Position numbers and translations under genes: made by a program
Assembly (NCBI GenBank): GCA_965242515.1
Contig: OZ251448.1
Span: forward strand, 326,512 to 390,511
Direction of reading: 5' to 3'
Origin: Bdellovibrionales bacterium
GTDB lineage: Bacteria; Bdellovibrionota; Bdellovibrionia; Bdellovibrionales; UBA1609
Length of the DNA stretch: 64,000 nucleotides
Shown: positions 8,014 to 60,244 of the stretch, piece by piece
Position numbering within the stretch: position 1 is the first letter of the stretch
Layout: every line of letters begins with the position of its first letter
The notes under the pieces: generated by a model
The model's input: only the letters and a program-made list of their open reading frames with translations
Told to the model about the DNA's origin: nothing
The model's database searches: none

Positions 8014-8137
8014 ACAATGACTACATGCAACATGGTAATTATTCCTGCTTATGAGCAGGACTCTAGAAAGTCATTTTTAAAGTAAAAAAAGTAAGTCAAA
8101 ATCAGTGTACCGAATTTACTTGTAAAAAAATCTCATC

Positions 8138-8257
8138 GCAGAAGGAAAAACCATGCTCAAAACGAGTTCGGATTTGACGCAAAGTGATAAGCTAAAAGCT
8201 TAACGCTTTTGCGGTAAACCGCAGTCCAAAGATCTGGAGTGAGGTTTTTCTTTCTGC
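8138..8257 (+). repeat. family A palindromic MITE-like element (type copy)
   Basis: Terminal inverted repeats gcagaaggaaaaacc / ggtttttctttctgc. Conserved core aaaacgagttcggatttga. Central hairpin cgcaaagtg-ataagctaaaagctta-acgcttttgcg. Confidence 0.9.
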
Positions 8258-8416
8258 AAAAGAGCTTTTTGAATAATAAACTAGACTGGATTCTTGCTTT
8301 CTGCTTGCTTTTCTCACTCAAAAGTGTTCTAATCAAAAAAATGCTTGATGGTGCTGATTAATTAATTAATTAAAAGGCAATAAACAAAAAAGAGGTAAGA
8401 GAATGGTTGGTAGAAT

Positions 8417-13065: not shown

Positions 13066-13128
13066 TTTGTGTTTGGTTTAATTTTATATGTTTTGAATTG
13101 TACGCTTTTACAAACTGTATATTATACT

Positions 13129-13260: not shown

Positions 13261-13331
13261 AAAAACTACAATATAACTAGACTTTCTATCTGTTTTTTAC
13301 TTATACTACAATAAGAAAAATAACTTTAAGC

Positions 13332-14132
13332 TTACGGCAATAAACCACATGCCCTTAACTCTTCGTTAGATAATGTACTAGCATATTGCTTTGCTTGCTC
13401 TAAATCCTTCTTCGCATCACTTAACTCCAATAGGTCAGGACGCCTCTTTGCCGTTAATAAAATAGATACAAAATACTGAAACCGCTTAATGTCCCCATCA
13501 TGACCTGAACGCAAAAGCTCCGGCACAACATGCCCTTCAATGTGCCAAGGTCTTGTCCACTGCGGACACTCTAATAAATTCTGATTTTCAAAACTTTCAT
13601 AAGTGCTAGATAACTCATTACCCAAAACCCCCTTCACAAAACGACAAAGCGAATCTAATATCACTAAAACCGCCCCCTCACCACCTGTTAAAATGTAATT
13701 ACCAATGGATACCTCCTCATCCACTAACTCGTTTATAACCCTCTGATCAATGCCCCCATAACGACCACATATCAATGTATACTCCTTACCCTCCCTCGCC
13801 CACTGGCGAGCTAAACTGTGATCCCATAACCTCCCCTGCGGACTTAAATAACATACCAAACCTTTAGAAGGTAGTGCACTAATAGCCCTCTTCAAAGGCT
13901 CATACCTAAGTAACATCCCATCCCCACCACTAAAAGGTCTGTCATCTACCCTCCGATACTTGTCATCCGTAAAATCCCTAGGATTAGTAAAATCTACCTC
14001 CAATAACCCCGAACGAATAGCCCTCCCCACTACACCCACCCCCAACGGCGAGCGAAAATAATCCGGAAATAAACTCACAACATGTACTTTTAATTCGGTT
14101 TTTAAATTCGGTATAGTTACTTTTTTTATCAC
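13332..14132 (-). CDS. trmD: tRNA (guanine37-N1)-methyltransferase
   Basis: VVSLFPDYF, CGRYGGIDQRV and SIGNYILTGGE are TrmD blocks. The track start is a GTG lying inside the family E repeat, so the true start is uncertain. Confidence 0.9.
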   Translation of the reverse strand: MIKKVTIPNLKTELKVHVVSLFPDYFRSPLGVGVVGRAIRSGLLEVDFTNPRDFTDDKYRRVDDRPFSGGDGMLLRYEPLKRAISALPSKGLVCYLSPQGRLWDHSLARQWAREGKEYTLICGRYGGIDQRVINELVDEEVSIGNYILTGGEGAVLVILDSLCRFVKGVLGNELSSTYESFENQNLLECPQWTRPWHIEGHVVPELLRSGHDGDIKRFQYFVSILLTAKRRPDLLELSDAKKDLEQAKQYASTLSNEELRACGLLP

Positions 14133-14296
14133 TTAGTTACTTCCTCCCAATACAGTTACTCAGTATCAACCCTTATGCTCGATACTTTTTTGCTTTATTT
14201 TGTAAATTCAATATAGTTACTTTTTCTATCACTTAGTTGCTTCCCCCCAATACAGTTACTCAGTATCAACCCTTACGCTCGATACTTTTTTGCTTC
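14088..14296 (-). promoter_or_regulatory. family E leader-like repeat, two tandem ~100-bp units immediately 5' of trmD
   Basis: Units 14104..14196 and 14204..14296. Each reads aaattc(gg/aa)tatagttacttttt(t/c)tatcacttagtt(a/g)cttcc(t/c)cccaatacagttactcagtatcaaccctta(t/c)gctcgatacttttttgc. Confidence 0.8.
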
Positions 14297-14317
14297 AAAA
14301 ATAAATACTTCTTTTGA

Positions 14318-14433
14318 GTAGAAGGGGAAAAACCATGCTCAAAACGAGTTCGGATTTGATACAAAGTAGTAAGCTGAAAGCTTAACACTTTTGCGGTAAA
14401 CCGCAGTCCAAAGATTTTGAGCTCGGTTTTTTT
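14318..14433 (+). repeat. family A element
   Basis: gtagaaggggaaaaaccatgctcaaaacgagttcggatttgatacaaagtagtaagctgaaagcttaacacttttgcggtaaaccgc...ggttttttt. Confidence 0.9.
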
Positions 14434-14517
14434 ATTCATACAACCCACAAAAAAATCGCCCTTTCTCGCCGTGATTAATTACATACAAGACACTTTTTGT
14501 CGTCCCAAGCTTTTGAA

Positions 14518-15957
14518 CTATTTTTTTATCTTCTGTAAATAATACCTTAAAGCCTCCTTGACTTTTCCACTCAGCAGTAAAACCCCAATTAAATTAGGTA
14601 AAGCCATACTTAATATCATAAGATCACTAAATTGAATGGCATTTTTAGAAGTAGCAATAGAACTCATAAACACAATCACTAACAATATTATCTTGTAAAT
14701 AAAAGACTTAGAATCACTAAATAAAAACACAAAACACCTTTCCCCATAATATGCCCAAGATATAATAGTAGAAAAAGCAAACAAAAACACTGCCACACTT
14801 AATAATATAGGGAACCAACTAACCACCTCACCCATAGCTTGAGAAGTTAAAGCCGCACCCTTTTGATGACTCACTAAATCAGCATAATCCGGATTACCAA
14901 CCACACCCGTAATAATAATCACTAAAGCTGTCATTGTGCATATACATACGGTGTCAATAAAAGGCTCTAATAAGGCGACACTCCCCTCCTCCACCGGGTG
15001 CTTTACCTTAGCTACGGAATGAGCAATAGCAGCAGAACCTAAACCCGCCTCGTTAGAAAAAGCCGCCCTCTGCACTCCTGTAACCAACACACCAATAAAA
15101 CCACCATAAGCACTATTAACAGGAGAATAAAAAGCCCCTTCAATAATAGACCATAACGCTTGTGGAATATGATCGTAATGAGCAATTAAAATAAATAATG
15201 ACATTAAAATATACATGCCACACATAAAAGGCACAATTCGACTAGCCGTTACCGCTATACTCTTAATACCCTTCAATATCACACTGGATACTAATAAAGT
15301 CATAATAATACCATATATCCACCCATGCTTATCCATAGCTGGTATAATTTGTGCCACAGCATGCATCGACTGATTAACCTGAAAAGCCGTGCCACCTCCA
15401 AAAGACCCACCTATACACATTAAACAAAATGCAATAGCAAGTAACCTGCCTAAACCACTAAACCCTATCTCTGATAAACCTTTCTGCAAATAAACCATAG
15501 GACCACCCATAAGCTTTCCGTCTAACCTCTTTTCTCGATACATAACCCCTAAAGTGCATTCTGTAAATTTCACATTCATACCCAATAAACCCATAACAAT
15601 CATCCAAAAAGTAGCCCCCGGACCACCAACAATAATCGCTACCGCAACCCCCGCAATATTACCTAAACCAACGGTGGCCGATAAAGCCGTGCTTAAAGCT
15701 TTAAAATGACTGATCTCACCTAATTTCTCTGTTGAAGTAGCTTTTATAGATTGCACAACTAATTTAATAGCGTGAAAAAATAAACGAAAATTGACAAACC
15801 TCATTTTAATAGTGAAAATCACACTCGCTGTAAAAATAACAAACACTATGAGGGGACATTTAATACCATCTACAAAAAACAATACATCAAAGAAAAAAAC
15901 CTTGGTTATAACCGCATTCACTTGGCTGAAAATATTGTTGATAAATTGCTGAATCAT
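14518..15957 (-). CDS. alanine/glycine:cation symporter (AGCS family)
   Basis: 479 aa polytopic membrane protein with AGCS blocks LGNIAGVAVAIIVGGPGATFWM and FSNEAGLGSAAIAHS. Confidence 0.85.
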   Translation of the reverse strand: MIQQFINNIFSQVNAVITKVFFFDVLFFVDGIKCPLIVFVIFTASVIFTIKMRFVNFRLFFHAIKLVVQSIKATSTEKLGEISHFKALSTALSATVGLGNIAGVAVAIIVGGPGATFWMIVMGLLGMNVKFTECTLGVMYREKRLDGKLMGGPMVYLQKGLSEIGFSGLGRLLAIAFCLMCIGGSFGGGTAFQVNQSMHAVAQIIPAMDKHGWIYGIIMTLLVSSVILKGIKSIAVTASRIVPFMCGMYILMSLFILIAHYDHIPQALWSIIEGAFYSPVNSAYGGFIGVLVTGVQRAAFSNEAGLGSAAIAHSVAKVKHPVEEGSVALLEPFIDTVCICTMTALVIIITGVVGNPDYADLVSHQKGAALTSQAMGEVVSWFPILLSVAVFLFAFSTIISWAYYGERCFVFLFSDSKSFIYKIILLVIVFMSSIATSKNAIQFSDLMILSMALPNLIGVLLLSGKVKEALRYYLQKIKK

Positions 15958-16028
15958 AGTTACTTTATTCTGTTATAAGATGCTAATACGAACAAGAAGA
16001 TTTATTTTATTTAGCCCTAAGTCGTAAT

Positions 16029-19000
16029 TTATAAACTTAAACTTTTGCTGGATTCGTAAAGGGCTGACACAACAGCCACTGCTGCATCCCTTTGCGTAAT
16101 GCACGGCACACCCTGATCCAAACAACTCCGCCTAATGCTAAAACTAATCTCAATAGACCTTCTGCCCGATGTGGTGTTAATCACAAATGCCACCTTGCCA
16201 GAGCGAATGCGATCCACACAATGCGGACGCCCCTCATGCACCTTCTTAACCCTCAAACAAGCAATACCTGCATCCGTCAAACACCTAAAAGTACCACCCG
16301 TTGCCGATAAACTATAACCCATATCCACTAACTGACGAGCCACAGGTAATAATAATTTTTTGTCCTTATCCCGCAAAGATAAAAACACCTCGCCACTTTT
16401 AGGCACACTCAAACCCATGCCCGCTAACGCCTTTAATAATGCCACAGGATAGCTCTTGCTTCTACCCATAACCTCACCAATAGACTTCATCTCCGGACCT
16501 AAAATAGAATCCACATCCTCAAACTTCTTAAACGGAAATACCACCCCCTTAACACATACCTGCTCGCAAGCTTGCCAATTATACTGACTAGGAGTTATAT
16601 CTTTTGCCTTAAACTTTAACATAGCTTTGACCGCTAAATCTGCTAAGGGAATGCCTGTCGCCTTAGAAACATAAGGCATACTACGAGAACTCCGCGGATT
16701 AGCCTCCAATACATAAATGCAGTCATCCTTAATAGCTAACTGTAAATTTAAAAACCCTAAAATGTTTAAATTACGAGCAAGTAAAGCCGAACACTTTTCA
16801 ATCTTTTCCCATATCACTTGCTTTAACCTCTGCGGAGGTAACACCCCCATACTATCCCCACTATGTACACCTGTACCCTCAATATGCTCCACAATACCCC
16901 CTATTACTACCCAGTCAACACCACACACTAAATCCACATCCACCTCTAACCCTTCTAAAAATTGATCCATTAAACACGGATTTTCTTGAGATATAAAATG
17001 CTGATAGCGAGAAAAATAACTCCTTAACTCCGATTCATTTTCTATCAACTCCATGCGTCTCCCACCTAAAACATAACTCGGGCGACAAAGTAAAGGGTAG
17101 CCTACATACTTGCTGACTGTAATGGCAGACGATATATCAGTCGCCACCCCCGCCTTAGGTACCCTTAAACCTAAATCAGTACATAAAGATACAAACTGCC
17201 CTCTATCCTCTGCCCTGTCAATATCACGAACCTTCGTGCCGATTAACTTAAAACCCTCCTTCACCAAAGGTTTTGCTAAACCAATAGGGGTTTGCCCCCC
17301 TACTTGAGCCACAAAACCAATGGGTGATATAAACCTTAATACCTCTATCACATGCTCTTTGGTTAAAGGCTCAAAAAATAACACATCCGCTGTGTCATAA
17401 TCGGTAGAAACTGTCTCCGGATTGGAATTCACCATAACCGCCCTGTAACCTGCACGCTTTATAGAACGCACACTGCGAACACAAGAATAATCAAACTCAA
17501 TGCCCTGCCCTATCCTGTTCGGACCACTACCTAAAATCAATATAAAATTACCACTCTTAACCTGACCCTCCTGACTACCACTCGTAGTGTTTATATCTGT
17601 TGTAGTATTCCCTAGAGCTTCATCTGTAGATTTATCTGCAGATTTACCGATAGCTCCATCGATAATTCCACTATGCCAATAAGTGGAATAATAATAAGGC
17701 GTTGAAGAGGCAAACTCGCCGGCACAAGTGTCCACCTGATAAAAAGCAGGTACAATACTATAGCTATGCCTGAAACTTCGTATTTGCTCTTCAGACTTAT
17801 TACACCAGTGAGCTAACATAAAATCCGAAACCCCAAAACGCTTAGCCTGCCTTATAGATTCTTTAACACCCTCTTTTGTTTCACCTGTTATATCATCTTG
17901 TATAGATTCTTTTATATCTTTTTTTTGTATGTTTTGTGTTATATCACAAACTTTTTTGCTTTTTTGTGTATCTTTAAAGGGTAATTTTCCAGCCTGTGCT
18001 TTAATCTGTTTTTCTAACACAATAAGTTTATAAAATTGCTCTAAAAACCAAGGGTGGATTTGTGTCCACTCCTGCACTTGCTGAACCGAATGCCCCCTTC
18101 TAAAAGCCTCTAAAATACTATACAACCTGCGACTATTAGGGTAAGTTAAATTCTTTAAAGCAAAATCATCAACCCCTACCAATAAGTCATCGTGCTTTTC
18201 TAACGATACAACAGCCTTCATACAAGCCTCTAAAAACACTCTCCCTATACCCATAACCTCACCCACACTTTTCATCTGTGTGTTTAATACATCCTTAGAA
18301 CCTTCAAATTTCTCAAAGTCAAAACGAGGGATTTTAAACACCACATAATCCAAAGCAGGCTCGTAACAAGAAGGAGTAGCCCCACCTGTTATATCATTTC
18401 GAATCTCGTCCATAGTCAAACCCACAGCTACCAATGCTGCCACCTTCGCAATCGGAAACCCTGTTGCCTTACTGGCTAAAGCTGAAGAACGACTGACACG
18501 CGGATTCATCTCTATCACTAACCGCTTTCGTGTTTTGGGATGTACGGCAAACTGAATGTTGGCACCCCCTGTTTCTACCCCCACAGCTGAAATAATACGC
18601 CCTGCCTCATCACGCATAGCCTGATACTCCACATCCGATAATGTCTGCTGTGGAGAAACAGAACAACTATCCCCCGTATGCACACCACAAGGGTCCATAT
18701 TCTCCACCGAACATACCACTACAAAAGTCCCTTTACTATCACGCATAACCTCTAACTCAAACTCACACCAACCTAATAAACTCCTCTCCACTAATACCTC
18801 ACTTGTAGGCGACTCCCTTAACGCCTGTACTAACTTCCTCTCATACTCCTCAATAGAATGTGCTACCCCACTGCCCCCACCACCTAAAGTGTAATTAGGA
18901 CGAAGTACTAAGGGAAATGTCATACCACTTGCCACCTCCATACCCTGCTTAAAGCTCCTCACTAACTCACTTTCCGGATAGCCCGCCCCTATACTCTCTA

Positions 19001-19500: not shown

Positions 19501-19543
19501 TTTAAATAGAATACCACTCAATAAATACTTTCTTTGCGGTTAT

Positions 19544-19657
19544 GAATGAAAAAACCATGCTCAAAACGAGTTCGGATTTGACCACAATGCAGTAGCCAAC
19601 GGCTAATGCGTTGTGGCAAACCGCGGAGTCCTAAGCTTTTGAACTCGGTTTTTTCAC
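19544..19657 (+). repeat. family A element
   Basis: Core cgagttcggatttga, hairpin ccacaatgc-agtagccaacggcta-atgcgttgtgg, then caaaccgc. Confidence 0.9.
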
Positions 19658-19721
19658 TTGCCACACATGATGTGGATATTTTTTGAAAGTCTGATTTTGT
19701 GAAAAACTATGTACTATACCT

Positions 19722-19862
19722 GACTTGATAAGACTTGATAAGACTTGATAAGACTTGATAAGACTTGATAAGACTTGATAAGACTTGATAAGACTTGATA
19801 AGACTTGATAAGACTTAAACTACTCATATTAGCAATTATAAATATTTTTTCATAAATTACAA
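19722..19862 (+). repeat. family G: 9 x gacttgataa tandem repeat plus conserved tail
   Basis: gacttgataa x9 (19722..19811), then gacttaaactactcatattagcaattataaatattttttcataaattacaac. Same orientation as 13129. Confidence 0.95.
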
Positions 19863-19915
19863 CTATTTTTTTAAAAAAAACCTAGACTTTTATATGCAAT
19901 TTAAGATATTTTTTT

Positions 19916-20983
19916 TTATCTTGAGTGATGCTTTTTTTGTAGCTTTTTAATGTCTTCTTCTGAAAGCCCCATCACCTTCGCAATAAACGGAATATCTGCA
20001 TTTTCTTGAAACATATTCGCAATCACTTGTCGTCTTTCTTCTTCCCTGCCTTTTAGCTCGCCTTGTAAAATACCCTGTTGCATACCCTGTTGCATACCCT
20101 GTTGCAGGTACTTTTGTTTGCTTTGCAACATACCCTTCTTTATACCTTTTGCCATAGCCTCATCTAATGAGTATTGTAATGGTGCCATAACTCTTTCCTC
20201 CTTATCTGTTATTGTTTTAGCCTCTATTTCTCGAACGACCGTCCAACTAAAGTGTGGATCATATCTGCTTATATAATCTGCAACCTTACCTATTAACTTC
20301 CTTCTCTTACCTATACTTATAACCTGGCTTAATATAAATAAATCTCTTATCGTGTTATACTCTAAATTCCATATATTTTGTAGTATAAACAGTACCGGGC
20401 GAGAAAGCAAGCTTTCTGTCTTGGCATCCCTTACATTAAGCTTACTTATGTTGAGTAACCTGTAGCTAAAATTAAGTACATTATTACCAAAGTGCTGTTT
20501 TAAACTACTTTGAAAGCCTTGTAAGCTATCTTGAAAGGCTAAAGGCTCTTTCCAGTGCTTTTGCCTGCCATGGTAGATAACAATAGGGATAATAGGTAGT
20601 TTCGTTTGCTTGTAAATAGATACTTGATACTCCAGTAACTGTTGATGAATATTCGGTGCAGGTGAGCTTTTATGCTCAACCAGAAAAAGCATGCCTACTG
20701 TTTGGTTTTGAGCTTCTTTTAACCTTGCAGAAAGAAGTAAGTCTGTGCGTTTTTCTTTAGAATCTTGGTCTATAAAAGTAGTAACTTCTGATTTAAGAGT
20801 GTTCCAATCAAAAAGAGCCATTTCTTGTGGAGTAAATAATAAATGGAAAAGATCTAAGCAGTGCTTAGTTTGAGTGTAGATTTCTTTAAAGAAAATATCA
20901 TGCAAAAAAGCTTTGCTTTTCTTGCCCTGCTTTGGAGATGGTTTTTTAGCTGTGTCTTTACTTACAGCTTGTTTATTCCTCAT
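19916..20983 (-). CDS. Rpn/YhgA-like PD-(D/E)XK recombination-promoting nuclease (putative transposase)
   Basis: N-terminal HDIFFKEIY...CLDLF, and the nuclease core DLLLSA...MLFLVEHKS. The C-terminal tail has QQGMQQGMQQGILQG repeats and a terminal ...IPFIAKVMGLSEEDIKKL helix, typical of this family. Confidence 0.75.
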   Translation of the reverse strand: MRNKQAVSKDTAKKPSPKQGKKSKAFLHDIFFKEIYTQTKHCLDLFHLLFTPQEMALFDWNTLKSEVTTFIDQDSKEKRTDLLLSARLKEAQNQTVGMLFLVEHKSSPAPNIHQQLLEYQVSIYKQTKLPIIPIVIYHGRQKHWKEPLAFQDSLQGFQSSLKQHFGNNVLNFSYRLLNISKLNVRDAKTESLLSRPVLFILQNIWNLEYNTIRDLFILSQVISIGKRRKLIGKVADYISRYDPHFSWTVVREIEAKTITDKEERVMAPLQYSLDEAMAKGIKKGMLQSKQKYLQQGMQQGMQQGILQGELKGREEERRQVIANMFQENADIPFIAKVMGLSEEDIKKLQKKHHSR

Positions 20984-21202
20984 AACTTATTCCTCCCCTT
21001 TGTGTTTCATAATGTTACCCATAGTACATCTTAAAAAGATGCACCTGCATAAACTACATGCAAAATCGATTCCCACTTTAAATTAAAGAGTAGCAAAGAG
21101 GATATTTTGCAGGTCCAAGCACGCATAATGTGTTTTATTTGATGCAATCCTTACAATACCCCCCTACCTTCACCTAATCCATAGACTAATAAATGTACGC
21201 TT

Positions 21203-21315
21203 TAGAAGGGAAAAACCATGCTCAAAACGAGTTCGGATTTGACCACAATGCAGTAGCCAACGGCTAATGCGTTGTGGCAAACCGCATGTTTGAGCTTTTG
21301 AGTGAGGTTTTTCCC
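21203..21315 (+). repeat. family A element
   Basis: Central part identical to 19544. Termini gaagggaaaaacc / ggtttttccc. Confidence 0.9.
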
Positions 21316-21680
21316 TTAAACAAGCATGCTGTTACTAAACCTCCGGGGCATGGCAAACCGTGCAAACATAAGCTTTTGATGCTACGGTTTGAAGCAAAAA
21401 TAGCTATAACAACAATGCTGATAATAAAAGTGTCCACTTTTTGGACAAAATTATGTGCATATAATGCACACTTTATACACTTTTTTATAAAATATGAGTT
21501 GGTATGGGGTAAATAGTCCTCAAAGCACAAGGCTTTTTACTAAAGTTGATGTGAAGCGGTGTGTCGCACAGAAAAGTATGGAGTCCTAAGCTTTTGACTT
21601 GCTTTTCTCACTATAAAAGTTAGATTCCCAAGCTTTTGAGCTCTTTCTTAATATCTCGAAAAAAGTTACTTACTCTTTTT

Positions 21681-23970: not shown

Positions 23971-24693
23971 ATGAAAATGTTATTTACTGCAATCTCACTT
24001 TGTTTGTTATTTAACTTTACAAGTCTTGCTCAAGCCGATACTTGCTCTAGTAGCTTTTCAAATAAATATAGAACATCCTTACTTATAGCGATTAAAAACG
24101 GACAACTAGAGAAAGTAAAATCATTATTAGAAAAAGGAGCGGATCCCAATGCTAAAGACGATGATGGAGTAACAGCTTTAATGTACATATCTACAAAAAA
24201 TGATACAGAGACAGTAAAATTATTGTTAGAAAAGGGGGCGGATCCCAATGCTAAAAACAATGATGGAAAAACAGCTTTAATGTACGCATCTGGCAATGGT
24301 CATACAAAGACAGTAAAATCATTATTAGAAAAGGGAGCTGATGTCAATGCTAAAAACAATGATGGAAAAACAGCTTTAATGTACGCATCTAATAATGGTC
24401 AGTCGGATATAGTAAAATTATTATTAGAAACTGAAGCAGATCCCAATGCTAAAGACAATGATGGACAAACAGCTTTAATGTACGCATCTTATGATGGTAG
24501 TTCAAGGATAGTAAAATTATTATTAGAAACTGAAGCAGATCCCAATGCTAAAGATAATAATGGAAAAACAGCTTTAATGATAGCATCTTATAAGAATGAT
24601 ACTGCATGGATAATAAAATTATCAAGCCGATTTAGAAAAGGGGGCGGATCCGATGATGGAATGCTAAAAACAATGATGGAAAAACAGCTTTAA
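23971..24693 (+). CDS. secreted ankyrin-repeat protein, N-terminal ORF of a frame-disrupted gene
   Basis: Signal peptide MKMLFTAISLCLLFNFTSLAQA, then 33-aa ANK units (G.TALM.AS..G....VK.LLE.GADPNAKD.). The frame is lost at about 24618..24660. Confidence 0.8.
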   Translation: MKMLFTAISLCLLFNFTSLAQADTCSSSFSNKYRTSLLIAIKNGQLEKVKSLLEKGADPNAKDDDGVTALMYISTKNDTETVKLLLEKGADPNAKNNDGKTALMYASGNGHTKTVKSLLEKGADVNAKNNDGKTALMYASNNGQSDIVKLLLETEADPNAKDNDGQTALMYASYDGSSRIVKLLLETEADPNAKDNNGKTALMIASYKNDTAWIIKLSSRFRKGGGSDDGMLKTMMEKQL

Positions 24694-25262
24694 TGTACGC
24701 ATCTAATAATGGTCAGTCGGATATAGTAAAATTATTATTAGAAACTGAAGCAGATCCCAATGCTAAAGACAATGATGGACAAACAGCTTTAATGTACGCA
24801 TCTAATAATGGTCAGTCGGATATAGTAAAATTATTATTAGAAACTGAAGCAGATCCCAATGCTAAAGACGATAATGGAAAAACAGCTTTAATGCACGCAT
24901 CTTATAATGGTCATACAAAAACAGTAAAATCATTACTAGAAAATGGAGTAAATCCCAATGCTAAAGATGATAAAGGAAGAACAGCTTTAATGATAGCATC
25001 TTATAAGAATGATACTGCATGGATAGTAAAATTATTATTAGAAAAAGGAGCGGATGTCAATGCTAAAGATAATGATGGAAAAACAGCTTTAATGTACGCA
25101 TCTCATAATGGTCATACAGAGACAGTAAAATCATTATTAGAAAATGGAGCAAATCCCAATGCTAAAGATAATGGTGAAGACACAGTTTTAGTGTACGCAT
25201 CTTTAAAAAATGATATAGGGACAATAACATTATTAAAAAAATATGGAGCTAAAGATAATTAA
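24693..25262 (+). CDS. ankyrin-repeat protein, C-terminal ORF of the same disrupted gene
   Basis: Continues the same 99-bp ANK units in another frame. About 5.5 further repeats. Confidence 0.8.
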   Translation: MYASNNGQSDIVKLLLETEADPNAKDNDGQTALMYASNNGQSDIVKLLLETEADPNAKDDNGKTALMHASYNGHTKTVKSLLENGVNPNAKDDKGRTALMIASYKNDTAWIVKLLLEKGADVNAKDNDGKTALMYASHNGHTETVKSLLENGANPNAKDNGEDTVLVYASLKNDIGTITLLKKYGAKDN

Positions 25263-25546: not shown

Positions 25547-26167
25547 TTAATCTTCTACTTTATAGCCACTTTCTATACCCTGTGTTTTTAAGTAATTTGC
25601 TAATGACTCACTAACTATCGTATCTTTAAAGATTGCATCTTTAAAGTTCGTACCTGTAAATTTCACTTCTATTAAATCAGCTTTTGTTAGATTTGCTTCT
25701 GTGAGATTTGCTTCTGTGAGATCTGCTCTAAATAAAACTGCTTCTGTGAGATTTGCCCTTGTGAGATTTGCTTTATATAATTTTGCAGAGACTAAACCCG
25801 CTTTTGTTAAATCTGCCTCTGTTAGATTTGCCTCAATGAGGCTTGCTCCAATAAACAATGAACCTGTTAGATTCAACTCGCTTAAATTTCTCTTACTTAA
25901 AGGACAGCCAGATAAATCGTATCTCCCCAACAAAACCTCTTTGTTATCAATAGCTTTAAAAAACTTTCTCAAAGTTCTTATATTACATTCAACTTTATTC
26001 TTATTCTTAGTCTTATTCTTCTTATTCTTATAAGCTACTTTTCTGGTAATTTTAACTTCTGAAGGTTTATCCTCCATTTTATCCCCCATTGAGGATTGCT
26101 TGCTTAGTTTAGTAGTAGTACAAGCTACAAGGCTTAAAAATAATAACAAGTAAATAATATGTTTCAT
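25547..26167 (-). CDS. pentapeptide-repeat lipoprotein
   Basis: The ATG at 26167 gives MKHIIYLLLFLSLVACTT (lipobox). The C-terminal half is A(D/N)L(T/S)xA pentapeptide repeats (ANLTEADLTKAGLVSAKLYKANLTRANLTEA...). Confidence 0.8.
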   Translation of the reverse strand: MKHIIYLLLFLSLVACTTTKLSKQSSMGDKMEDKPSEVKITRKVAYKNKKNKTKNKNKVECNIRTLRKFFKAIDNKEVLLGRYDLSGCPLSKRNLSELNLTGSLFIGASLIEANLTEADLTKAGLVSAKLYKANLTRANLTEAVLFRADLTEANLTEANLTKADLIEVKFTGTNFKDAIFKDTIVSESLANYLKTQGIESGYKVED

Positions 26168-26232
26168 AATATCCTCCTTTTTGATAAACAATTTTAAAGT
26201 ATTCTTTTATTATTTGATTCTATTTTTTTTTA

Positions 26233-27507
26233 TCATTTTTTTATTAAATTTGCTATTTTTATAGATAAATTAGTCTTTAGTCTTAATACGAATGGAGTGT
26301 TTTTTTGACAAACAATAATATATTCATAAAGCATTGTAGGTACTTTTTTACCTGTAACATTAGTAGGAGAATTTTTTAATGGCATCGTTTTTGAAGAAAT
26401 AGTACGTCTATATGTTAAAACATGCTGAAACCCAAATTTTTCAAATTGTTCTGCAATAAATTGATCTGTCGGTAAAGTGATATTTTTAACAGTTCTATTG
26501 CCTACAACATATATAGCAAAACCTCCAGGTACAATAGCTTTAGCTACTTCCTTAATAGAATGTGCTAAATCTATGTAAAAAGCAGATACTTCTAAAGCTC
26601 TTTTTAAGCTTACTGTACTAATGTTTATAATGAATGGAGCTACAATCCCTTTATCATATAAAATACTAGATTTTTTACCACCCATAAGCAGAGAATCTAT
26701 TTTTCTAGCACGAGAAAACCCCATCCACTCATTAGAAAGAGTAGAAAATTGCCCATAAGCCACTGTCGTTCGACTATCGCCATAAGGTGGGCTAGTTAAC
26801 ACCGCATCGTATTGACTCTTATGATATGTAAATGCATGATTATAAAAGTAAAATTTTTGATGTTTCAACAAAGGTAAATAAAAACTTATGTATGTTTGCA
26901 ATACTTTATTTAAAGTTTTAAAGTAAATACTTTTTACATTAGGTTTAAATGATGCATTTTTTTCTTGTGGCATTTTATAAAGCTTAAATTCATTGTTTCT
27001 AGTATAAGACACAAACCTTACTGTTTCAGAAAAAGCTACCCAAAACAAAGCTTGATATTTTTTAATACTAACTTCTTCTATAATGGTTTTCCTAATAACA
27101 GCTAACTCTTTAATAACTTTCTTAGAAAACCAAAACCCAATATTAGTAATAACAGGAGGTGCTACTTCTTTATTGTGATGATAAACTACATATTCTATGT
27201 TTTTTTTGTATTCTAACAGTTTAATTGTATTTAATTTTTTGTATCTAGCTTTAGCTATTAAAATGGCTAAAGGGTTAATGTCAAATCCAGTAAATTCTGA
27301 AAAACCAGATGCTATACCTGCTAAAGCAGAAGAACCTGTTCCACAATAAGGGTCTAATAGACGGTGACGAGTTAGTTTTAATTCTTTAAAAAGCTCAATA
27401 CCAATTTTTGGAAGCATGGTTGCTGGATATTTATGTAGATTAGGAACATGACTTGCATAAGTCTCATCTTTAAAATCGTAAGTTTTGTTAGGGCATACCT
27501 CATACAT
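26233..27507 (-). CDS. DNA methyltransferase (SPPY catalytic motif; N4-cytosine or N6-adenine type)
   Basis: HKYPATMLP...LLDPYCGTGSSALAG...GFDINPLA (AdoMet-binding motif I region), followed ~175 aa later by LTSPPYGD (motif IV). No nuclease gene adjacent. Confidence 0.65.
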   Translation of the reverse strand: MYEVCPNKTYDFKDETYASHVPNLHKYPATMLPKIGIELFKELKLTRHRLLDPYCGTGSSALAGIASGFSEFTGFDINPLAILIAKARYKKLNTIKLLEYKKNIEYVVYHHNKEVAPPVITNIGFWFSKKVIKELAVIRKTIIEEVSIKKYQALFWVAFSETVRFVSYTRNNEFKLYKMPQEKNASFKPNVKSIYFKTLNKVLQTYISFYLPLLKHQKFYFYNHAFTYHKSQYDAVLTSPPYGDSRTTVAYGQFSTLSNEWMGFSRARKIDSLLMGGKKSSILYDKGIVAPFIINISTVSLKRALEVSAFYIDLAHSIKEVAKAIVPGGFAIYVVGNRTVKNITLPTDQFIAEQFEKFGFQHVLTYRRTISSKTMPLKNSPTNVTGKKVPTMLYEYIIVCQKNTPFVLRLKTNLSIKIANLIKK

Positions 27508-27704: not shown

Positions 27705-29489
27705 TTAAAGAGTGTTGTTTAAAACGATAGGGAGTAAGTCTTTTAAGTCTTGAGCCATGAGGGTATCTGCCACACCTTTTGTTCTTAAATGCTCGTCAGC
27801 TAATGCCCCATGGATAAAAGCCCCCATAGCCAAAGCCTCTACGGGGGATACTTTTCGTGCCATTAAAGAGGCTATGAAACCTGTAAGTACATCCCCAGTG
27901 CCAGCTTTGGCTAATGCACTGTTACCTGTGGGAATAACCCCTAACGAGTAAGGAAAATGCTCGCTCGTTTGCGTACTCGGTATGGCTATTACAGAATGAA
28001 AGCCTTTTAATAAAAGAGTGCAATTTAATTTTTGCATAGCTTGAGTGGCATAATAAGCTTTATTTTTATCTATTTCACTTCCCTTTAGTTTAAATAAGTA
28101 AGCCAGCTCCCCACTATGCGGGGTTACTACCCAGTGGGAAGGTAAAGGATAAAGTTTTTCTTTTACACAAACCCTAAAGGCTGAAGCATCTACTACCACC
28201 GGTAAATCTAATTTTTTTAATTTAAGTAACAGCTGTTTTGTGGACTCCCCTACTTCTAAACCCGGACCAATAGCCACAGCAGTTTTGTTTTTAAATAAGT
28301 CAGAGTCGTCTATATCTTGTGTCAATATATCCGGTGCTATCCTCTCACCCCTAAAATCCTGCTTTTTTACCCATGAAAAGAGATTCTGTTGCGTTATCTT
28401 TTTTGTTAATAGCATCTTAAATAGTGAGAAAACCAATTCAAAACGAGTTCGGATTTGACCACAATGCGGAAAGCCCAAAGGCTTAACGCTTTGTGGCAAA
28501 CCGCATGTCCGAGCTTTTGACTTGGTTTTCTCACTATTAAGCATTTTTTGTTTTTGCAAAGATGATGATGTGGCTAAAGTCACATAACCACAGCCCATAC
28601 GCAAAGCTGCCTCACTACATAACTGCCCTGCCCCCTCATAACCACAAGAGCCCGCAATTACCAACACATGCCCCTGCTGTGCTTTGTGACTGGCAATCTT
28701 TCGCTTTGGCATTCGCGAAGATACCCATTTTTTTGTTACCACACATGAGTTAACAACATTTTTTTGAGTTACTAAGTTAAAAGGGTAGCCAATAGATAAC
28801 ACTTTTACAAAACCCGTGTGCTTCGGACCCTCTTGCAAATAAAACCCAAGCTTTGTCAAACCATAAGTTAAAGTCATATTGGCACAAATACCAACCCCCA
28901 CACATAAGCCTGTGTCCACATTTAAACCCGATGGCACATCTAAAGAAACAACATAACTTGATAAACTATTAACATAGTTTATTAAATCAACATAGCCTCC
29001 CCTTACCTCACCCTTTAAGCCCACTCCAAATAAGGCGTCTATTATTAAAGAAGTTTCTTTAATTTCTTTTTTTATCTTATTAAAATCACTTAAATTATAA
29101 GTAGGTATATTTTGCAACAACAGCCTGTTTTTTTGCTTTTTTACTAAGTTAGATTTGATATCATCAGCTACAAATACTTGAACCTTAATACCTTGAGAAT
29201 GCAGGTGCCTTGCTACCACCAACCCATCCCCCCCGTTATGCCCCGGACCACAAAGAAGTACCACACTTTTTTTGCCTGCAATAAGGGTGCTAAAATACTG
29301 CAAAATACTATCTGCCGATTTTGCCCCTGCAAGCTCCATTAAAACTTCAGCCGATAAATTGTATTTTTCTTGTGCAATACAATCTATCGTAGCACTGGTT
29401 TGAGCATGAGCTACACCCTGTAACAACAAACCCGATTCAGAAATTAATTTATTATTTTCCACTCCCATTTTTTTATCTATTACCATCAA
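27705..29489 (-). CDS. nnr: bifunctional NAD(P)H-hydrate repair enzyme (epimerase/dehydratase) carrying an in-frame repeat insertion
   Basis: YjeF_N motif CGPGHNGGDG. C-terminal kinase-like domain GHVLVIAGSCGYEGAG...AVAIGPGL...GTGDVLTG. 594 aa, roughly 80 aa longer than usual. Confidence 0.85.
   Translation of the reverse strand: MMVIDKKMGVENNKLISESGLLLQGVAHAQTSATIDCIAQEKYNLSAEVLMELAGAKSADSILQYFSTLIAGKKSVVLLCGPGHNGGDGLVVARHLHSQGIKVQVFVADDIKSNLVKKQKNRLLLQNIPTYNLSDFNKIKKEIKETSLIIDALFGVGLKGEVRGGYVDLINYVNSLSSYVVSLDVPSGLNVDTGLCVGVGICANMTLTYGLTKLGFYLQEGPKHTGFVKVLSIGYPFNLVTQKNVVNSCVVTKKWVSSRMPKRKIASHKAQQGHVLVIAGSCGYEGAGQLCSEAALRMGCGYVTLATSSSLQKQKMLNSEKTKSKARTCGLPQSVKPLGFPHCGQIRTRFELVFSLFKMLLTKKITQQNLFSWVKKQDFRGERIAPDILTQDIDDSDLFKNKTAVAIGPGLEVGESTKQLLLKLKKLDLPVVVDASAFRVCVKEKLYPLPSHWVVTPHSGELAYLFKLKGSEIDKNKAYYATQAMQKLNCTLLLKGFHSVIAIPSTQTSEHFPYSLGVIPTGNSALAKAGTGDVLTGFIASLMARKVSPVEALAMGAFIHGALADEHLRTKGVADTLMAQDLKDLLPIVLNNTL
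28420..28538 (+). repeat. family A element inside the nnr coding sequence
   Basis: aatagtgagaaaaccaattcaaaacgagttcggatttgaccacaatgcggaaagcccaaaggcttaacgctttgtggcaaaccgcatgtccgagcttttgacttggttttctcactatt. Translated in the nnr frame it gives ...KTKSKARTCGLPQSVKPLGFPHCGQIRTRFELVFSLF... Confidence 0.9.
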
Positions 29490-30899: not shown

Positions 30900-32435
30900 C
30901 TAAAGTTTTTTTTGCAAAAAACGCACAATATCATCTGCTACTTTCTTAATTAAACTATTGTCACTGCCTTCCACCATAACCCTAATCACAGGCTCCGTCC
31001 CCGAAAGCCTGACATACAACCGAGCTTTATCTTTTAACCGCTTTGTCATGCCTTCCATAAAGTTTTCATACCCAGATATTTCAGATAACTTACTCAATTT
31101 TGTTTTTTGAATCTTGACCGTACAATGCACTTGTGGCACCTCCACTAAAGTTTTTCTTAAACTAGATAAAGTTTTATTTGTATCACGCATAACAGCTAAC
31201 ACATTCAAAGCTGCTACACACCCATCCCCCGTCGTACTATGCTTTAAAAAAATAATGTGACCTGAAGATTCCCCCCCTAAACAAATATCACGCTCTTTCA
31301 TATACTCTACCACATTCCTATCCCCTACCTCCGTACGCAATAACTCAATGCCCTTTTTTCTTAACATATCCTCTAAACCCTTGTTAGACATATATGTCGC
31401 TACCACCTTGCCCTCATCTAATTCCCCCCTTTTTTGTAAATTAAAAGCACATATACCTAAAATGTGATCGCCTGTTACTAACTCGCCCCTCTCATCTACC
31501 ATCAATACACGATCCCCATCCCCATCTAAACTAATGCCCACATCCGCCTTGTGCTTTATCACCGCCTGCTTTGTCTTCTCCACACACAATGCCCCCGACT
31601 GACGATTAATATTGTAACCATCAGGCTCTTTTCCCAATACAATAAGCTCTGCCCCTAACTCTTCAAAAATCTTAGGAGCTACCTTGTAACAAGCCCCATT
31701 GGCACAATCTAAAACAATACGCATCCCCTCTAAATCTTGCTTCAGCTCAAAAGTGTTCTTCACATGCACAATATACCTGCCAGCAGAATCGTCAATCCTA
31801 CGGCTACGCCCTACCCGATGCGAAGACGCAATCAAACTATCTAACTCCTTAGAAAATACTAAACGCTCTATCTCCTCCTCCATCCGATGCGATATCTTAA
31901 AACCATCTTTGTCAAAAATCTTTATGCCATTGTCAGGATATAAATTGTGAGAAGCAGAAATTACAATACCAGCTAATGCCCTCATATTACGAGCTAAAAA
32001 ACCAATACCAGGAGTTGGCAACGGTCCCGTCAACTGCACCCATACCCCCATAGAATTTAAACCGCTCGCTAATGCTTGCTCTAACATATAACCAGAAAGC
32101 CTAGTGTCCTTCCCAATCAACACCACCCCCATAGGGGGCTTTTTTTGACCCACTCCTTGCTCACCCCACCTATCACTTGTCAATGATGCTGAAGTTGTAC
32201 TTATCTGAGGTAACTTACTATCCCCCAAAGGGGGCTTTTTTTGACCCACTCCTTGCACGCTCCACCCACCATCTGTCAATGCCCCTTTAGCTTGAACACT
32301 CTGCTTTAATAAATACCCAAGAGCCTGCCCTACCCTTAATATAATATCCACCCGCACAGGAAATTCATTAGAAATACCCCTGATCCCATCCGTCCCAAAT
32401 AGATTTGATTCGGTATAGTTACCCTTGTGTTTCAT
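30900..32435 (-). CDS. glmM: phosphoglucosamine mutase carrying an in-frame repeat insertion
   Basis: FGTDGIRG, GKDTRLSGYMLE, GIVISASHN (active-site Ser), SLDGDGDR and GGESSGH. 511 aa against the usual ~445. Confidence 0.9.
   Translation of the reverse strand: MKHKGNYTESNLFGTDGIRGISNEFPVRVDIILRVGQALGYLLKQSVQAKGALTDGGWSVQGVGQKKPPLGDSKLPQISTTSASLTSDRWGEQGVGQKKPPMGVVLIGKDTRLSGYMLEQALASGLNSMGVWVQLTGPLPTPGIGFLARNMRALAGIVISASHNLYPDNGIKIFDKDGFKISHRMEEEIERLVFSKELDSLIASSHRVGRSRRIDDSAGRYIVHVKNTFELKQDLEGMRIVLDCANGACYKVAPKIFEELGAELIVLGKEPDGYNINRQSGALCVEKTKQAVIKHKADVGISLDGDGDRVLMVDERGELVTGDHILGICAFNLQKRGELDEGKVVATYMSNKGLEDMLRKKGIELLRTEVGDRNVVEYMKERDICLGGESSGHIIFLKHSTTGDGCVAALNVLAVMRDTNKTLSSLRKTLVEVPQVHCTVKIQKTKLSKLSEISGYENFMEGMTKRLKDKARLYVRLSGTEPVIRVMVEGSDNSLIKKVADDIVRFLQKKL
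32126..32281 (+). repeat. two family D repeat copies plus spacer inside the glmM coding sequence (156 bp, 52 codons)
   Basis: Copy a is 32126..32185 and copy b is 32221..32281: cccc(c)a(t/a)agggggctttttttgacccactccttgc(t/a)c(a/g)c(c/t)ccac...tgtcaatg. Compare the intergenic D copy at 62056..62110. Confidence 0.8.
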
Positions 32436-32640
32436 TTAGTTACATCCCCCCGGTACAGTTGCATCGTATCAACCCTAACGCTCGTTACTTTTTAATTCAA
32501 TAAAGTAATTTGTGTTCATCACTTAGTTACATCCTCCGGTATAGTTACCACTTATCAACCTTAACACTTGTTACTTTTTAATTCAATAAAGTAATTTGTA
32601 TCTTCAAATTAGTCACTCTTTTAATTCAAATTATACCAAT
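32405..32640 (-). promoter_or_regulatory. family E leader-like repeat (two units) overlapping the glmM start
   Basis: ttcggtatagttacccttgtgtttcatttagttacatccccccggtacagttgcatcgtatcaaccctaacgctcgttac..., followed by a second unit. The glmM ATG (32435) and its first 9 codons lie inside the repeat. Confidence 0.8.
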
Positions 32641-32667
32641 CAATGCCATTCAATAAAATGTAACTAT

Positions 32668-32787
32668 TTAAATAGTGAGAAAACCAATTCAAAACGAGTT
32701 CGGATTTAACGCAAAGTAGTAGCCGTAGGCTAACACTTTGCGGTAAACCGCATGTCCGAGCTTTTGACTTGGTTTTCTCACTTTAAA
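32668..32787 (+). repeat. family A element
   Basis: Termini aatagtgagaaaacc / ggttttctcac. Hairpin acgcaaagt-agtagccgtaggcta-acactttgcg. Confidence 0.9.
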
Positions 32788-32815
32788 AGCTATAGTCCCA
32801 AACAGTTTTTTTACT

Positions 32816-32900
32816 TCGGTATAGTTACCCTTGTGTTTCATTTAGTTACTTTCCCCCGGTACAGTTACCACTTATCAACCTTACCACTCGTAGCTTTTTT
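32816..32900 (-). promoter_or_regulatory. family E repeat with a decoy copy of the glmM start
   Basis: 32816..32850 is identical over 35 nt to 32409..32443, including the ATG (32841..32839). On the minus strand it opens a ~50-codon ORF that runs into the family A copy. Confidence 0.8.
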
Positions 32901-33030
32901 AATTCAACAATAAACTCTTTCTATGTACACAAGTGAAAAAACATGCTCAAAACGAGTATCGCACCCAAAGGGTGTTCATTATTATCATAATACTACTATA
33001 TAATTTCTCAAAGTGATAATTACATGCTTT

Positions 33031-33142
33031 AAAGGGGAAAAACCATGCTCAAAACGAGTTCGGATTTAACGCAAAGTAGTAGCCGTAGGCTAACACTTTG
33101 CGGTAAACCGCATGTTTGAGCTTTTGAGCTCGGTTTTTCCCC
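33031..33142 (+). repeat. family A element
   Basis: Central part identical to 32668. Termini aaaggggaaaaacc / cggtttttcccc. Confidence 0.9.
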
Positions 33143-33295
33143 GAAAGAAGTTTAACTATCTCACAAAAATCTTCCCCCTCTCACTTCGTGCCTCAAAAAG
33201 CAAAAAGCTTCCCCCTTGGTTTTCTCACTTTAAAAGCTATAGTCCCAAGCTTTTGAATTTTAAGTTTTCTCACTTATACCTATTAAAATAGCTAC

Positions 33296-33360
33296 TTTTG
33301 TCTATCACTTAGTTACTTCTTTCCGGTACAGTTGCCACTTATCAACCTTAGCAATTTTCA
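33296..33360 (-). repeat. family E repeat unit abutting the ftsH stop codon
   Basis: ctatcacttagttacttctttccggtacagttgccacttatcaaccttagc. Confidence 0.7.
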
Positions 33361-37620: not shown

Positions 37621-37646
37621 AGGCTAATGAAAATATATACTTTACA

Positions 37647-37761
37647 GGTGAGCAAACCTCACTCCAGAGCTTAAAACTCTGCAGTTTGCCACAATGCGGT
37701 AAGCTGAAAGCTTAACGCATTGTATCAAATCCGAACTCGTTTTGAGCATGGTTTTCTCCCC
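37647..37761 (-). repeat. family A element (reverse orientation)
   Basis: ggtgagcaaacctcactccagagc...ccacaatgcggtaagctgaaagcttaacgcattgtatcaaatccgaactcgttttgagcatggttttctcccc. Confidence 0.9.
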
Positions 37762-37837
37762 TAGAATATGTATATCTTGTTAAGATAACCAATGATTCTT
37801 AAATTAACATAAATATATTTATTATATTATACAAAAA

Positions 37838-50599: not shown

Positions 50600-50748
50600 A
50601 TCCTAAATAGTAAAAACCACCACCATAAGCTTTGTCAATAGTAACAAGCCCTAAGGCTTGAAATTTTGCACAAATACACTCATTGTGCGAAAGCTTAGAA
50701 TGACGGCTGACGACAAAAATAACGGCTGACGAAGAAATATATGCTTTA

Positions 50749-50866
50749 GAGGGGAGCAAACTCAATTCAAAACGAGTTCGGATTTGATACAATGCAGTAG
50801 CCTTTGGCTAATGCGTTGTGGCAAACCGCAGAGTTTTAAGCTTTTGAGCTTTAAGTTTGCTCACCC
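50749..50866 (+). repeat. family A element
   Basis: gaggggagcaaactcaattcaaaacgagttcggatttgatacaatgcagtagcctttggctaatgcgttgtggcaaaccgc...gtttgctcaccc. Preceded by a family F tail (50700..50745). Confidence 0.9.
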
Positions 50867-50990
50867 GTAAAAGATGCAAAATTCGTTTTGCAAAAATCTT
50901 CCCATGCTACTCTAAAATAAGCAGTGTTATTGCAAAGTATTGAACTCTGGAGTGAGGTTTGCTCACCTGCGAAAACAAGTGGAAAGTAAG

Positions 50991-60086: not shown

Positions 60087-60094
60087 TACTTCTA

Positions 60095-60207
60095 GGTGAG
60101 AAAACCATACTCAAAAGCTTAGGACTCCGCGTTTTTCTACAAAGCGTTAAGCTTTCAGCTTACCGCATTGTATCAAATCCGAACTCGTTTTGAGCATGGT
60201 TTTCTCA
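60095..60207 (-). repeat. family A element (reverse orientation)
   Basis: ggtgagaaaaccatactcaaaagcttaggactccgcg...gcgttaagctttcagcttaccgcattgtatcaaatccgaactcgttttgagcatggttttctcac. Confidence 0.9.
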
Positions 60208-60244
60208 CTTACAAAAGGTGGTGTTTTAATGCCACTTTTTTTGT

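Follow-up and report, generated by a model that had tools for sequence, protein, structure and literature searches.

Background

The ERIC/IRU sequences of enterobacteria are imperfect palindromes of about 127 bp that lie in intergenic and occasionally in intragenic positions, and the mechanism of their mobilisation is unknown. Shorter palindromes of the REP/BIME type are mobilised by RAYT transposases, which are IS200/IS605-like (PMC3733652). Bacterial MITEs (miniature transposable elements with inverted repeats) include Correia/NEMIS and MITECca01 of Cardinium (PMC9769881; reviewed in PMC10969869). The Rickettsia palindromic elements (RPEs; Ogata et al. 2000, 2002) are palindromic dispersed repeats, some of which are found in frame in protein-coding genes (PMC10969869, PMC1458961); in R. 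bellii, 53 of 526 RPEs are located within genes (PMC1458961). Here we describe a palindromic repeat, designated family A, in a 64-kb stretch (the window) of the 1.76-Mb contig OZ251448.1 of a Bdellovibrionales bacterium (assembly GCA_965242515.1); copy counts given for the window refer to these 64 kb. One of its copies lies inside nnr, the gene encoding the bifunctional NAD(P)H-hydrate epimerase/dehydratase, as had been noticed in an earlier inspection of this DNA without database searches (the sequence-only reading). We conclude that, most probably, a selfish palindromic repeat has inserted here in frame, and that an nnr gene still under constraint tolerates it in a permissive loop.

The host gene nnr and the position of the insert

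The frame that contains the element, on the minus strand at 27705-29489, counts 594 codons from a TTG at position 29489, and translation confirmed that it remains open throughout, with the element in frame. The following parts of the gene could be delimited:

27705..29468, minus strand: nnr coding sequence, bifunctional NAD(P)H-hydrate epimerase/dehydratase, 587 residues from the ATG (Pfam, TM0922, AlphaFold, Foldseek)
28845..29348, minus strand: YjeF_N (epimerase) domain, spanning residues 48-215 in the frame of 594 codons (Pfam)
28569..28760, minus strand: dehydratase domain, first beta-alpha unit (GHVLVIAGS...GYVTLA), located upstream of the insert (TM0922 alignment, up to query residue 307)
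27735..28325, minus strand: remaining dehydratase (Carb_kinase) domain, residues 389-585, with GPGL and GTGDVLTG (Pfam, TM0922)

The supposition that the host is a genuine bifunctional nnr is borne out by the Pfam matches to YjeF_N (1e-44) and Carb_kinase (1.9e-44), in the order N-terminal epimerase and C-terminal dehydratase, and by the match of the whole protein to the bifunctional TM0922 (2.3e-64). Both the Pfam and the TM0922 alignments skip query residues 308-396. The nearest Nnr orthologs in the databases are about 49% identical, and those that are named stem from metagenome-assembled genomes (MAGs) of Bdellovibrionales. When 29 orthologs were aligned, a clean gap was seen at the place of the element, as the sequence-only reading had predicted. 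That reading had also placed the insert in a variable segment between the first beta-alpha unit and the GPGL loop, here delimited as GYVTLA and PDILT/GPGL, which agrees with the loop lengths observed: among 116 orthologs the distance from GYVT to P(D/E)xLT ranges from 10 to 81 residues with a median of 14, and the loop of the window Nnr is the longest (81). A segment homologous to the insert, looked for at this loop as evidence against an insertion, is present in none of the 116 orthologs.

The window Nnr has retained all 55 columns that are invariant in the family (116 orthologs) and 126 of the 140 columns that are conserved in at least 90% of the sequences. Pairwise identities among three syntenic genomes, i.e. 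the window and two contigs designated L014 and L015, are 46-49% for Nnr and 80-81% for FtsH in every pair, and this equality argues that there has been no rate acceleration in the lineage of the window. No terminator-like site could be identified in the sense direction across the insert. Readings of the insert as an intein, an intron or a terminator were rejected, as there were no matches to RNA families and no such terminator-like site.

Sequence, limits and reading frame of the element

28420..28436, plus strand: left terminal inverted repeat, 17 nt, AATAGTGAGAAAACCAA, an exact match to the reverse complement of the right arm
28522..28538, minus strand: right terminal inverted repeat, 17 nt, a perfect reverse complement of the left arm
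28439..28459, plus strand: inner core CAAAACGAGTTCGGATTTGAC, whose sequence is conserved in every copy, also in the other genomes
28416..28541, plus strand (model orientation): full family-A element; its minus-strand reading constitutes nnr codons 317-358, LNSEKTKSKARTCGLPQSVKPLGFPHCGQIRTRFELVFSLFK
28411..28415, no strand assigned: AGCAT, left copy of a possible 5-bp target-site duplication (read from the sequence, suggestive)
28540..28544, no strand assigned: AGCAT, right copy of the same possible duplication (read from the sequence, suggestive)

The element had initially been delimited as 28420-28538, a palindrome of 119 nt that begins with AATAGTGAGAAAACCAA and ends with TTGGTTTTCTCACTATT; its 17-nt arms proved to be exact reverse complements. 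Folded as RNA, this stretch forms one long hairpin of -57.2 kcal/mol, compared with -25.3 ± 3.3 kcal/mol for shuffled sequences (z = -9.7). Since 119 is not divisible by three, the limits of the element were re-examined. The palindrome was found to carry on outward as CTTAA...TTAAG, giving 28416-28541, or 126 nt, which corresponds to codons 317-358 in phase 0, and the same CTTTA.../...TAAAG ends occur in several other family-A copies. The covariance-model match at this copy covers 28416-28543 (113-115 bits, E about 1e-26). Alternatively, the inserted unit could measure 124 nt with AGCAT abutting each side, which adds up to 129 nt or 43 codons and would have led to a duplicated 'ML' in the protein (QKQKML-NSEK...SLFK-MLLTKK). 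Both delimitations preserve the nnr frame. The size of 119 bp thus holds for the palindrome as first described, while the full unit is somewhat longer, 124-126 nt. Across the element the nnr frame reads ...KTKSKARTCGLPQSVKPLGFPHCGQIRTRFELVFSLF..., with the junctions ...QKQKMLNSEK... and ...LVFSLFKMLLTK... in the protein. A 9-nt TTTTTTGTT repeat around the nnr copy was also considered as a duplication and discarded, as it is of low complexity and the length that it implies is not a multiple of three.

Family A in the window

The core CAAAACGAGTTCGGATTT occurs ten times in the window, compared with zero occurrences expected. A covariance model was built from an alignment of the ten window copies and run with filters off; it recovered exactly ten full-length copies of 124-128 nt with scores of 110-131 bits, and no degenerate extra copies above noise could be detected in the window. 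Nine of the ten copies are intergenic, in line with the earlier count of about nine, and the nnr copy is the only one within a long open reading frame (ORF). The intergenic copies identified with the covariance model are:

8135..8261, plus strand: family-A copy, intergenic
14317..14443, plus strand: family-A copy, intergenic
19539..19665, plus strand: family-A copy, intergenic, 3' of a Transposase_31 gene
21200..21324, plus strand: family-A copy, intergenic, 5' of the Transposase_31 gene that the 19539 copy flanks
32667..32790, plus strand: family-A copy, intergenic, closest sibling of the nnr copy (85% identical overall, 87% in the arms)
33027..33150, plus strand: family-A copy, intergenic
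37640..37767, minus strand: family-A copy, intergenic
50745..50872, plus strand: family-A copy, intergenic
60088..60215, minus strand: family-A copy, intergenic

Pairwise identity among the window copies is only 64-85%, indicating that the family is old and diverged. Eight of the ten copies are oriented on the plus strand and nearly all genes on the minus strand, a bias that is not significant at this sample size. The peptide QIRTRFE, reported earlier for ORFs crossing other copies (14266-14448, 50511-50792 and 60168-60398), is indeed encoded in all three. Comparison with Rfam, at gathering as well as permissive thresholds, gave only noise matches for the element, and BLAST against phage and plasmid records gave none, in keeping with the initial view that the sequence belongs to no repeat family that could be named. 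A prior description of such repeats in Bdellovibrionota was not found within a limited coverage of the literature.

Conservation of the hairpin and of open frames

Covariation was analysed in 23 copies, which were taken from the window and from five further assemblies (about six genomes). Standard pairing was found in 93.8% of cells, compared with 35-49% when the partners were slid, and changes on both sides were seen in 25 of 43 pairs; none of 500 shuffles reached any of the observed measures. All 13 pairs of the outer stem covary. In helices 2 and 3, which belong to the inner core, no both-side change occurred and most pairs are invariant. The window copies alone give the same picture. The alignment had been fitted to the model, which favours structure; we consider the signal to be real nonetheless, in view of the slid controls and an independent RNAalifold result. 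The hairpin is maintained by compensatory changes, and conservation of sequence is confined to the inner core. In addition, the more stable hairpin is formed on the strand carrying TCAAAACGAGTTCGGATTTGA; RNA parameters give this result for 19 of 22 copies, DNA parameters for all 22.

Reading frames were compared in 25 copies after anchoring on the core. In three of the six frames every copy has a stop codon. The frame used in nnr (rc0) is open in 7/25 copies, rc1 in 10/25, and fw2 in 9/25, all of the latter from other genomes. The nnr copy is open in both rc0 and rc1; its apex is 3 nt longer, which brings its two stop-free arm frames into register, unlike in the sibling at 32667.

Family A in other genomes

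A scan of genome contigs for the exact core, in which the window's own genome was not among the returned loci, identified matches in the MAGs CAR1_bin_21 (Bdellovibrionaceae, with many copies), RHO2_bin_34 (Oligoflexia) and IP30b_bin.7 (Bdellovibrionales), and on the 1.56-Mb chromosome OZ242172.1 (Bdellovibrionales). Full-length copies in these core-matching genomes were confirmed by the covariance model, and none lies within a long ORF. Two of the 13 loci, from a Eubacteriales genome (L007) and from the metagenome scan (L016), were dismissed as chance 22-mers without a model match. A copy on OZ242172.1 (locus L011) that seemed to lie in a '551-codon frame' was not accepted as in-gene, as it is located upstream of the probable start of a pilin-like gene, beside a GGTGTTGG tandem array. 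In this locus (6380-6640) a family-A copy with a long apex adjoins a tandem array of about nine GGTGTTGGGTGTTGG units, and the pilin-like gene downstream has an N-terminal GFALVEILVA motif.

In-gene copies could be identified on L014, the contig of the Nnr ortholog P0068; this contig and the window are syntenic (ftsH-glmM-nnr). In the L014 nnr a family-A copy (67.9 bits, E = 3e-14) occupies the same loop as in the window nnr but is read in a different frame (SSDMRFAAK...RFALKAKLVLSKLF); about 95 nt of other sequence break the apex of this copy, and a further palindromic repeat comes after the copy. For the arms of the L014 nnr copy, identity is 71-75% with other copies on L014 and 63% with the window nnr copy, which in turn is 80-87% identical to other copies in the window. 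Each nnr copy is thus nearer to copies of its own genome, which speaks for insertion into this loop on two independent occasions; concerted evolution inside each genome may be an alternative explanation of these similarities. The L014 contig has 2x coverage, and its nnr is interrupted by a frameshift. A second gene of L014, gcvP, encodes 1057 residues compared with 936 in L015 and contains a full-length family-A copy (75 bits) that reads ...QSRTRFEQ..., in the same frame as in the window nnr, and that corresponds to a clean gap relative to L015. This copy is part of an insert cluster of about 90 residues at an inter-domain linker, and a further insert of 30 residues is present in the protein.

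A profile of the peptide encoded in the nnr frame was searched against 1.84 billion cluster representatives (one per 50%-identity cluster). It matched P0001 and 15 other proteins, four of which derive from the window's own 1,761,023-bp contig. No credible Pfam domain was found in the ten longer matches that were scanned out of these 15, and the tandem-repeat protein P0133 gave scattered Pfam matches with no qualifying stretch. These other matches are ORFs running across repeat arrays and not in-gene insertions.

The four proteins from the window's contig (P0124, P0126, P0131 and P0132, all encoded outside the window) are ORFs of 264-440 residues that extend across repeat arrays and contain SLHRYIVT tandem repeats, FPRRRES derived from the palindrome GGAATGAC, and several copies of family A that are read in different frames. 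No Pfam domain was found in the three that were scanned, P0124, P0131 and P0132, and the four are probably spurious genes in the public annotation.

Predicted structure of the Nnr protein

An AlphaFold model of Nnr, built with the 116-sequence alignment, has an overall predicted local distance difference test score (pLDDT) of 88.8 and a predicted template modelling score (pTM) of 0.86, with pLDDT values above 90 in blocks on either side of the loop. In the numbering of the 587-residue protein, residues 301-380 score 35-73, and 311-350 only 35-61; the lowest values coincide with the element-encoded residues 310-351, which are modelled as helix, coil and helix. Foldseek superposes the model on TM0922 structures with TM scores of 0.85-0.87, normalised to the target. 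The Nnr fold is thus kept in the model, and the insert forms a low-confidence stretch in a loop of variable length. In our reading the added residues would form a flexible surface segment, and enzyme activity may have been retained.

Proposed origin and possible mode of mobilisation

We propose that family A is a non-autonomous, hairpin-forming dispersed repeat of about 124-126 nt, and that one copy of it landed in nnr in a member of the Bdellovibrionota that has a small genome and is probably associated with a host. The insertion would have added 42 codons, or 43 if AGCAT represents a target duplication, in the sole orientation that offers stop-free frames, and within the variable dehydratase loop between GYVTLA and PDILT. 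The gene would have stayed open and is most likely transcribed and translated straight through, yielding an Nnr with some 42 poorly ordered extra residues on an otherwise normal fold. Selection would remove disruptive insertions and leave those that are in frame, free of stops and situated in loops, so that a copy of this kind could persist; the extra peptide would be a by-product, not a designed module.

The only transposase-like gene in the window is the Transposase_31 (YhgA/Rpn-like) gene at 19916-20983 on the minus strand; no parental insertion sequence (IS) was found in the 64 kb, nor a RAYT gene among the annotated window ORFs. Family-A copies flank the Transposase_31 gene on both sides, in the same orientation, 83% identical and with the same apex; the gene might be a partner, composite or autonomous, or might stand there by chance. 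As elements occupy about one fifth of the intergenic spacers, the double flanking is not significant. A link between this gene and family A was rejected, since tblastn detected no homolog near the copies in other loci. The termini are conserved in structure only, the invariant core lies on one arm, and the hairpin is strand-specific; taken together, they are more easily reconciled with recognition of a folded single strand than with a transposase binding to terminal repeats. Mobility would then depend on a trans-acting enzyme that reads the inner core and the hairpin on one strand, and not the variable termini.

Alternative explanations

Several observations weigh against a tolerated insertion of a mobile element. 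In 24 copies, flanking direct repeats were no longer than in controls with chimeric flanks (the left flank of one copy paired with the right flank of another), so that target-site duplications are not supported across the family as a whole, and no transposase linked to family A was found. An empty site in a close strain was not found either, the best ortholog being 49% identical; as a consequence, the insertion event is inferred and not observed, and dN/dS is not computable. At the frame and clustering level of the profile search, nnr is the sole domain-bearing host found, and in-gene copies appear to be rare in the genome. The window Nnr ranks lowest of the 116 orthologs on conserved positions (0.900, median 0.978), an mRNA hairpin of about -57 kcal/mol could reduce expression, and the harmlessness of the insert is beyond what AlphaFold can show.

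Some of these points would also suit an nnr gene that is dead or dying, with an inactivated dehydratase and a frame that is still open because the insertion is recent or because two stop-free frames arose by chance; we nevertheless consider this unlikely. Nnr is dispensable in model bacteria, and the genome looks reduced and ridden with repeats (about 9% of the window), yet a frame of 594 codons has remained open in DNA of about 36% GC, and the comparison with L014 and L015 reveals no acceleration. The low score on conserved positions is matched by the sister sequences P0002 and P0067 (0.907), with which the window Nnr shares its misses, most of them conservative, while all 55 invariant residues are kept. 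As the element is open in two of six frames, an open insertion is not very improbable; however, the divergence of 13-15% from its closest sibling, if it accumulated after the insertion, would have brought stops to an unconstrained gene. The nnr of L014, which also bears inserts, is split by a frameshift that may be a sequencing error at 2x coverage.

A role for the insert, with the peptide or the mRNA hairpin serving as an interaction surface or in control of translation or stability, and with recurrent hits reflecting selection or targeting, appears very improbable. It could account for the presence of family A in the same Nnr loop of two genomes, apparently through independent events, but the two copies are read in different frames and encode unrelated peptides. 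Inserts of more than 30 residues occur in this loop in 5 of about 117 orthologs, P0068 included, but those of P0002, P0021 and P0034 are unrelated in sequence. The inner core is conserved across genomes whose FtsH proteins are about 80% identical; it is equally conserved in intergenic copies, which points to a need of the element and not of the protein. The low pLDDT of the insert region is a further argument against such a role. That a copy was spliced into nnr by mis-assembly is scarcely credible, even in a genome rich in the family-A repeat, as the flanks are contiguous, belong to the same gene in the same frame and are separated by a whole number of added codons, the contig is a single one of 1.76 Mb, and comparable in-frame inserts are present in independent assemblies.

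Other repeats and neighbouring genes

In-frame inserts of unrelated repeats were also observed. The glmM gene of the window (30900-32435, minus strand) has an in-frame insert at 32126-32281, made up of two 96-nt units of a different dispersed repeat, which encodes ...GALTDGGWSVQGVGQKKPPLGD...SLTSDRWGEQGVGQKKPPMGV... and adds about 45-50 residues to a loop in which L014 and L015 have some 15; the catalytic SASHN motif is intact. On the plus strand the unit contains CCCCCATAGGGGG and a T-run, and other copies are found at about 60024, 62066 and 62162. In a third related genome (L017, a 2.0-Mb contig), the gene of the Nnr protein P0055 contains 150 nt of yet another dispersed repeat, inserted in frame (10775-10924) and located before the dehydratase domain and not at the insert position of the window; three more copies lie within 21 kb (11857-11987, 9869-9954 and 12914-12989), two of them overlapping the called genes mlaD and msrAB. 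In L014 a further palindromic family is present in frame in both nnr (10865-11320) and gcvP (335-3508), encoding ...HNLQxSDNNVxxAAAxSLPxGG... and GKH(D/N)LQ(G/S)SD(M/I)xAAESRR..., and one family-A copy is nested inside this other family.

Repeated DNA makes up about 9% of the window (5.9 kb) and is nearly all intergenic. The spacer of about 900 nt between glmM and ftsH (32440-33360) consists almost entirely of repeats, two family-A copies included. At least three further families of dispersed repeats or palindromes, and several tandem arrays, could be distinguished:

12933, 30732, 37542 and 60261: GATTCCTGCCTTCGCAGGAATGAC family
12984, 25323 and 35881: GGGTCCAAGCCCCCAAAGGGGG family
14101-14290, 19410, 32404-32900 and 33277: TATAGTTAC family
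11488-11687: tandem array of five 40-nt units, intergenic
13109-13285 and 19712-19898: tandem arrays of 10-nt units, two loci 6.5 kb apart and 96% identical
6762-7031: tandem array of thirteen 21-nt units, inside the ORF at 6658-7104

Two abutting ORFs of ankyrin repeats (240 and 189 residues, built of 99-nt units) occupy 23971-25262 and may be one gene that was split in two; they are followed by a pentapeptide-repeat ORF at 25547-26191. The ankyrin genes suggest a host-associated lifestyle. Directly downstream of nnr lie N6_N4_Mtase DNA methyltransferase genes, both in the window (26233-27507) and on L015, the contig of the closest ortholog (11747-16576); in L014 and L017 tsaE follows nnr in their place. 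A restriction-modification island that varies between genomes thus appears to occupy a conserved position beside nnr.

Wider implications

With the insertion in nnr, which is probably tolerated, protein-coding palindromes are extended to a further phylum; the element is presumably unrelated to RPEs, and the genome is small, has ankyrin-repeat genes and probably belongs to a host-associated bacterium. This would support the idea that selfish hairpin repeats can settle in the loops of enzymes where selection is weak, as in lineages of this sort. In-frame repeats of several families occur in at least three genes of two or three related genomes, with the Nnr loop hit twice. A broader hypothesis, which we regard as possible and still rather doubtful, is that several unrelated palindromic families have invaded coding sequences, much as in Rickettsia, across a small-genome, host-associated clade of Bdellovibrionota at the family level; that the same permissive loops (in Nnr, GlmM and GcvP) have been hit independently; and that family A spreads via its core and strand-specific hairpin through a single-stranded DNA intermediate, and not by means of a terminal-repeat transposase. 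If so, this would be a second, independent natural system in which selfish DNA creates new protein segments.

The three related genomes, with FtsH proteins about 80% identical and different inserts in the same syntenic genes, constitute a natural series in which one may ask which loops accept insertions, whether translation extends through the inserts, and how a repeat is mobilised when its ends are conserved as structure alone. For annotation pipelines it is of relevance that such inserts lengthen proteins and that repeat arrays yield long spurious ORFs (P0124, P0131).

Comparison with known elements

Like bacterial MITEs, family A is short (<300 bp), present in multiple copies, without an internal transposase gene, and mostly intergenic with an occasional in-frame fusion. 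Terminal inverted repeats are present as well, being perfect over 17 nt in the nnr copy, but they are merely the outer part of a full-length hairpin. Classical MITEs have conserved terminal inverted repeats in common with a parental IS, and target-site duplications, whereas the termini of family A differ between copies and the element is wholly one long hairpin, instead of two inverted repeats around unrelated DNA. Family A thus resembles a MITE only in part.

With ERIC/IRU the element shares a nearly equal size (about 125 nt), a full-length imperfect palindrome and a dispersed intergenic distribution, a likeness of description, and the taxa are different. To our knowledge, ERIC has not been noted for settling repeatedly, in frame, in housekeeping enzymes. 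As in REP, the conserved feature appears to be the hairpin and not the terminal sequence, and the strand-specific stability would suit a single-stranded intermediate. Family A is not a REP, however: REPs are 20-40 nt long with a GTAG or CGTC head, while family A measures about 125 nt and has CTTTA.../...TAAAG termini and variants thereof.

The resemblance to RPEs claimed in the sequence-only reading holds for behaviour, and is strengthened by the in-frame copies in a related genome; it is a functional likeness, in a host of the Bdellovibrionota type. In both cases palindromic dispersed repeats of about 100-150 bp, without a known associated transposase, populate a small repeat-bearing genome, and a minority of copies resides in frame in genes (1/10 here, 53/526 in R. 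bellii, a proportion of similar size), adding a peptide to otherwise conserved enzymes at sites that may be compatible with the fold. In-frame copies that leave the ORF of a conserved gene unbroken were found in the window nnr and in gcvP and nnr of L014, the last of these being the gene with the frameshift mentioned above. Family A differs in its hosts, which are Bdellovibrionales, Bdellovibrionaceae or Oligoflexia MAGs and not Rickettsia; in an outer stem that varies freely with compensation, the inner core on one arm alone being conserved; in the apparent rarity of in-gene copies, as judged from the profile search; and in having hit the same loop of the same enzyme in two genomes. Family A may accordingly be likened to RPEs by behaviour and set apart from them by host lineage. 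It is a real RPE-like protein-coding palindrome, representing a new family in a new lineage and not a new kind of element.

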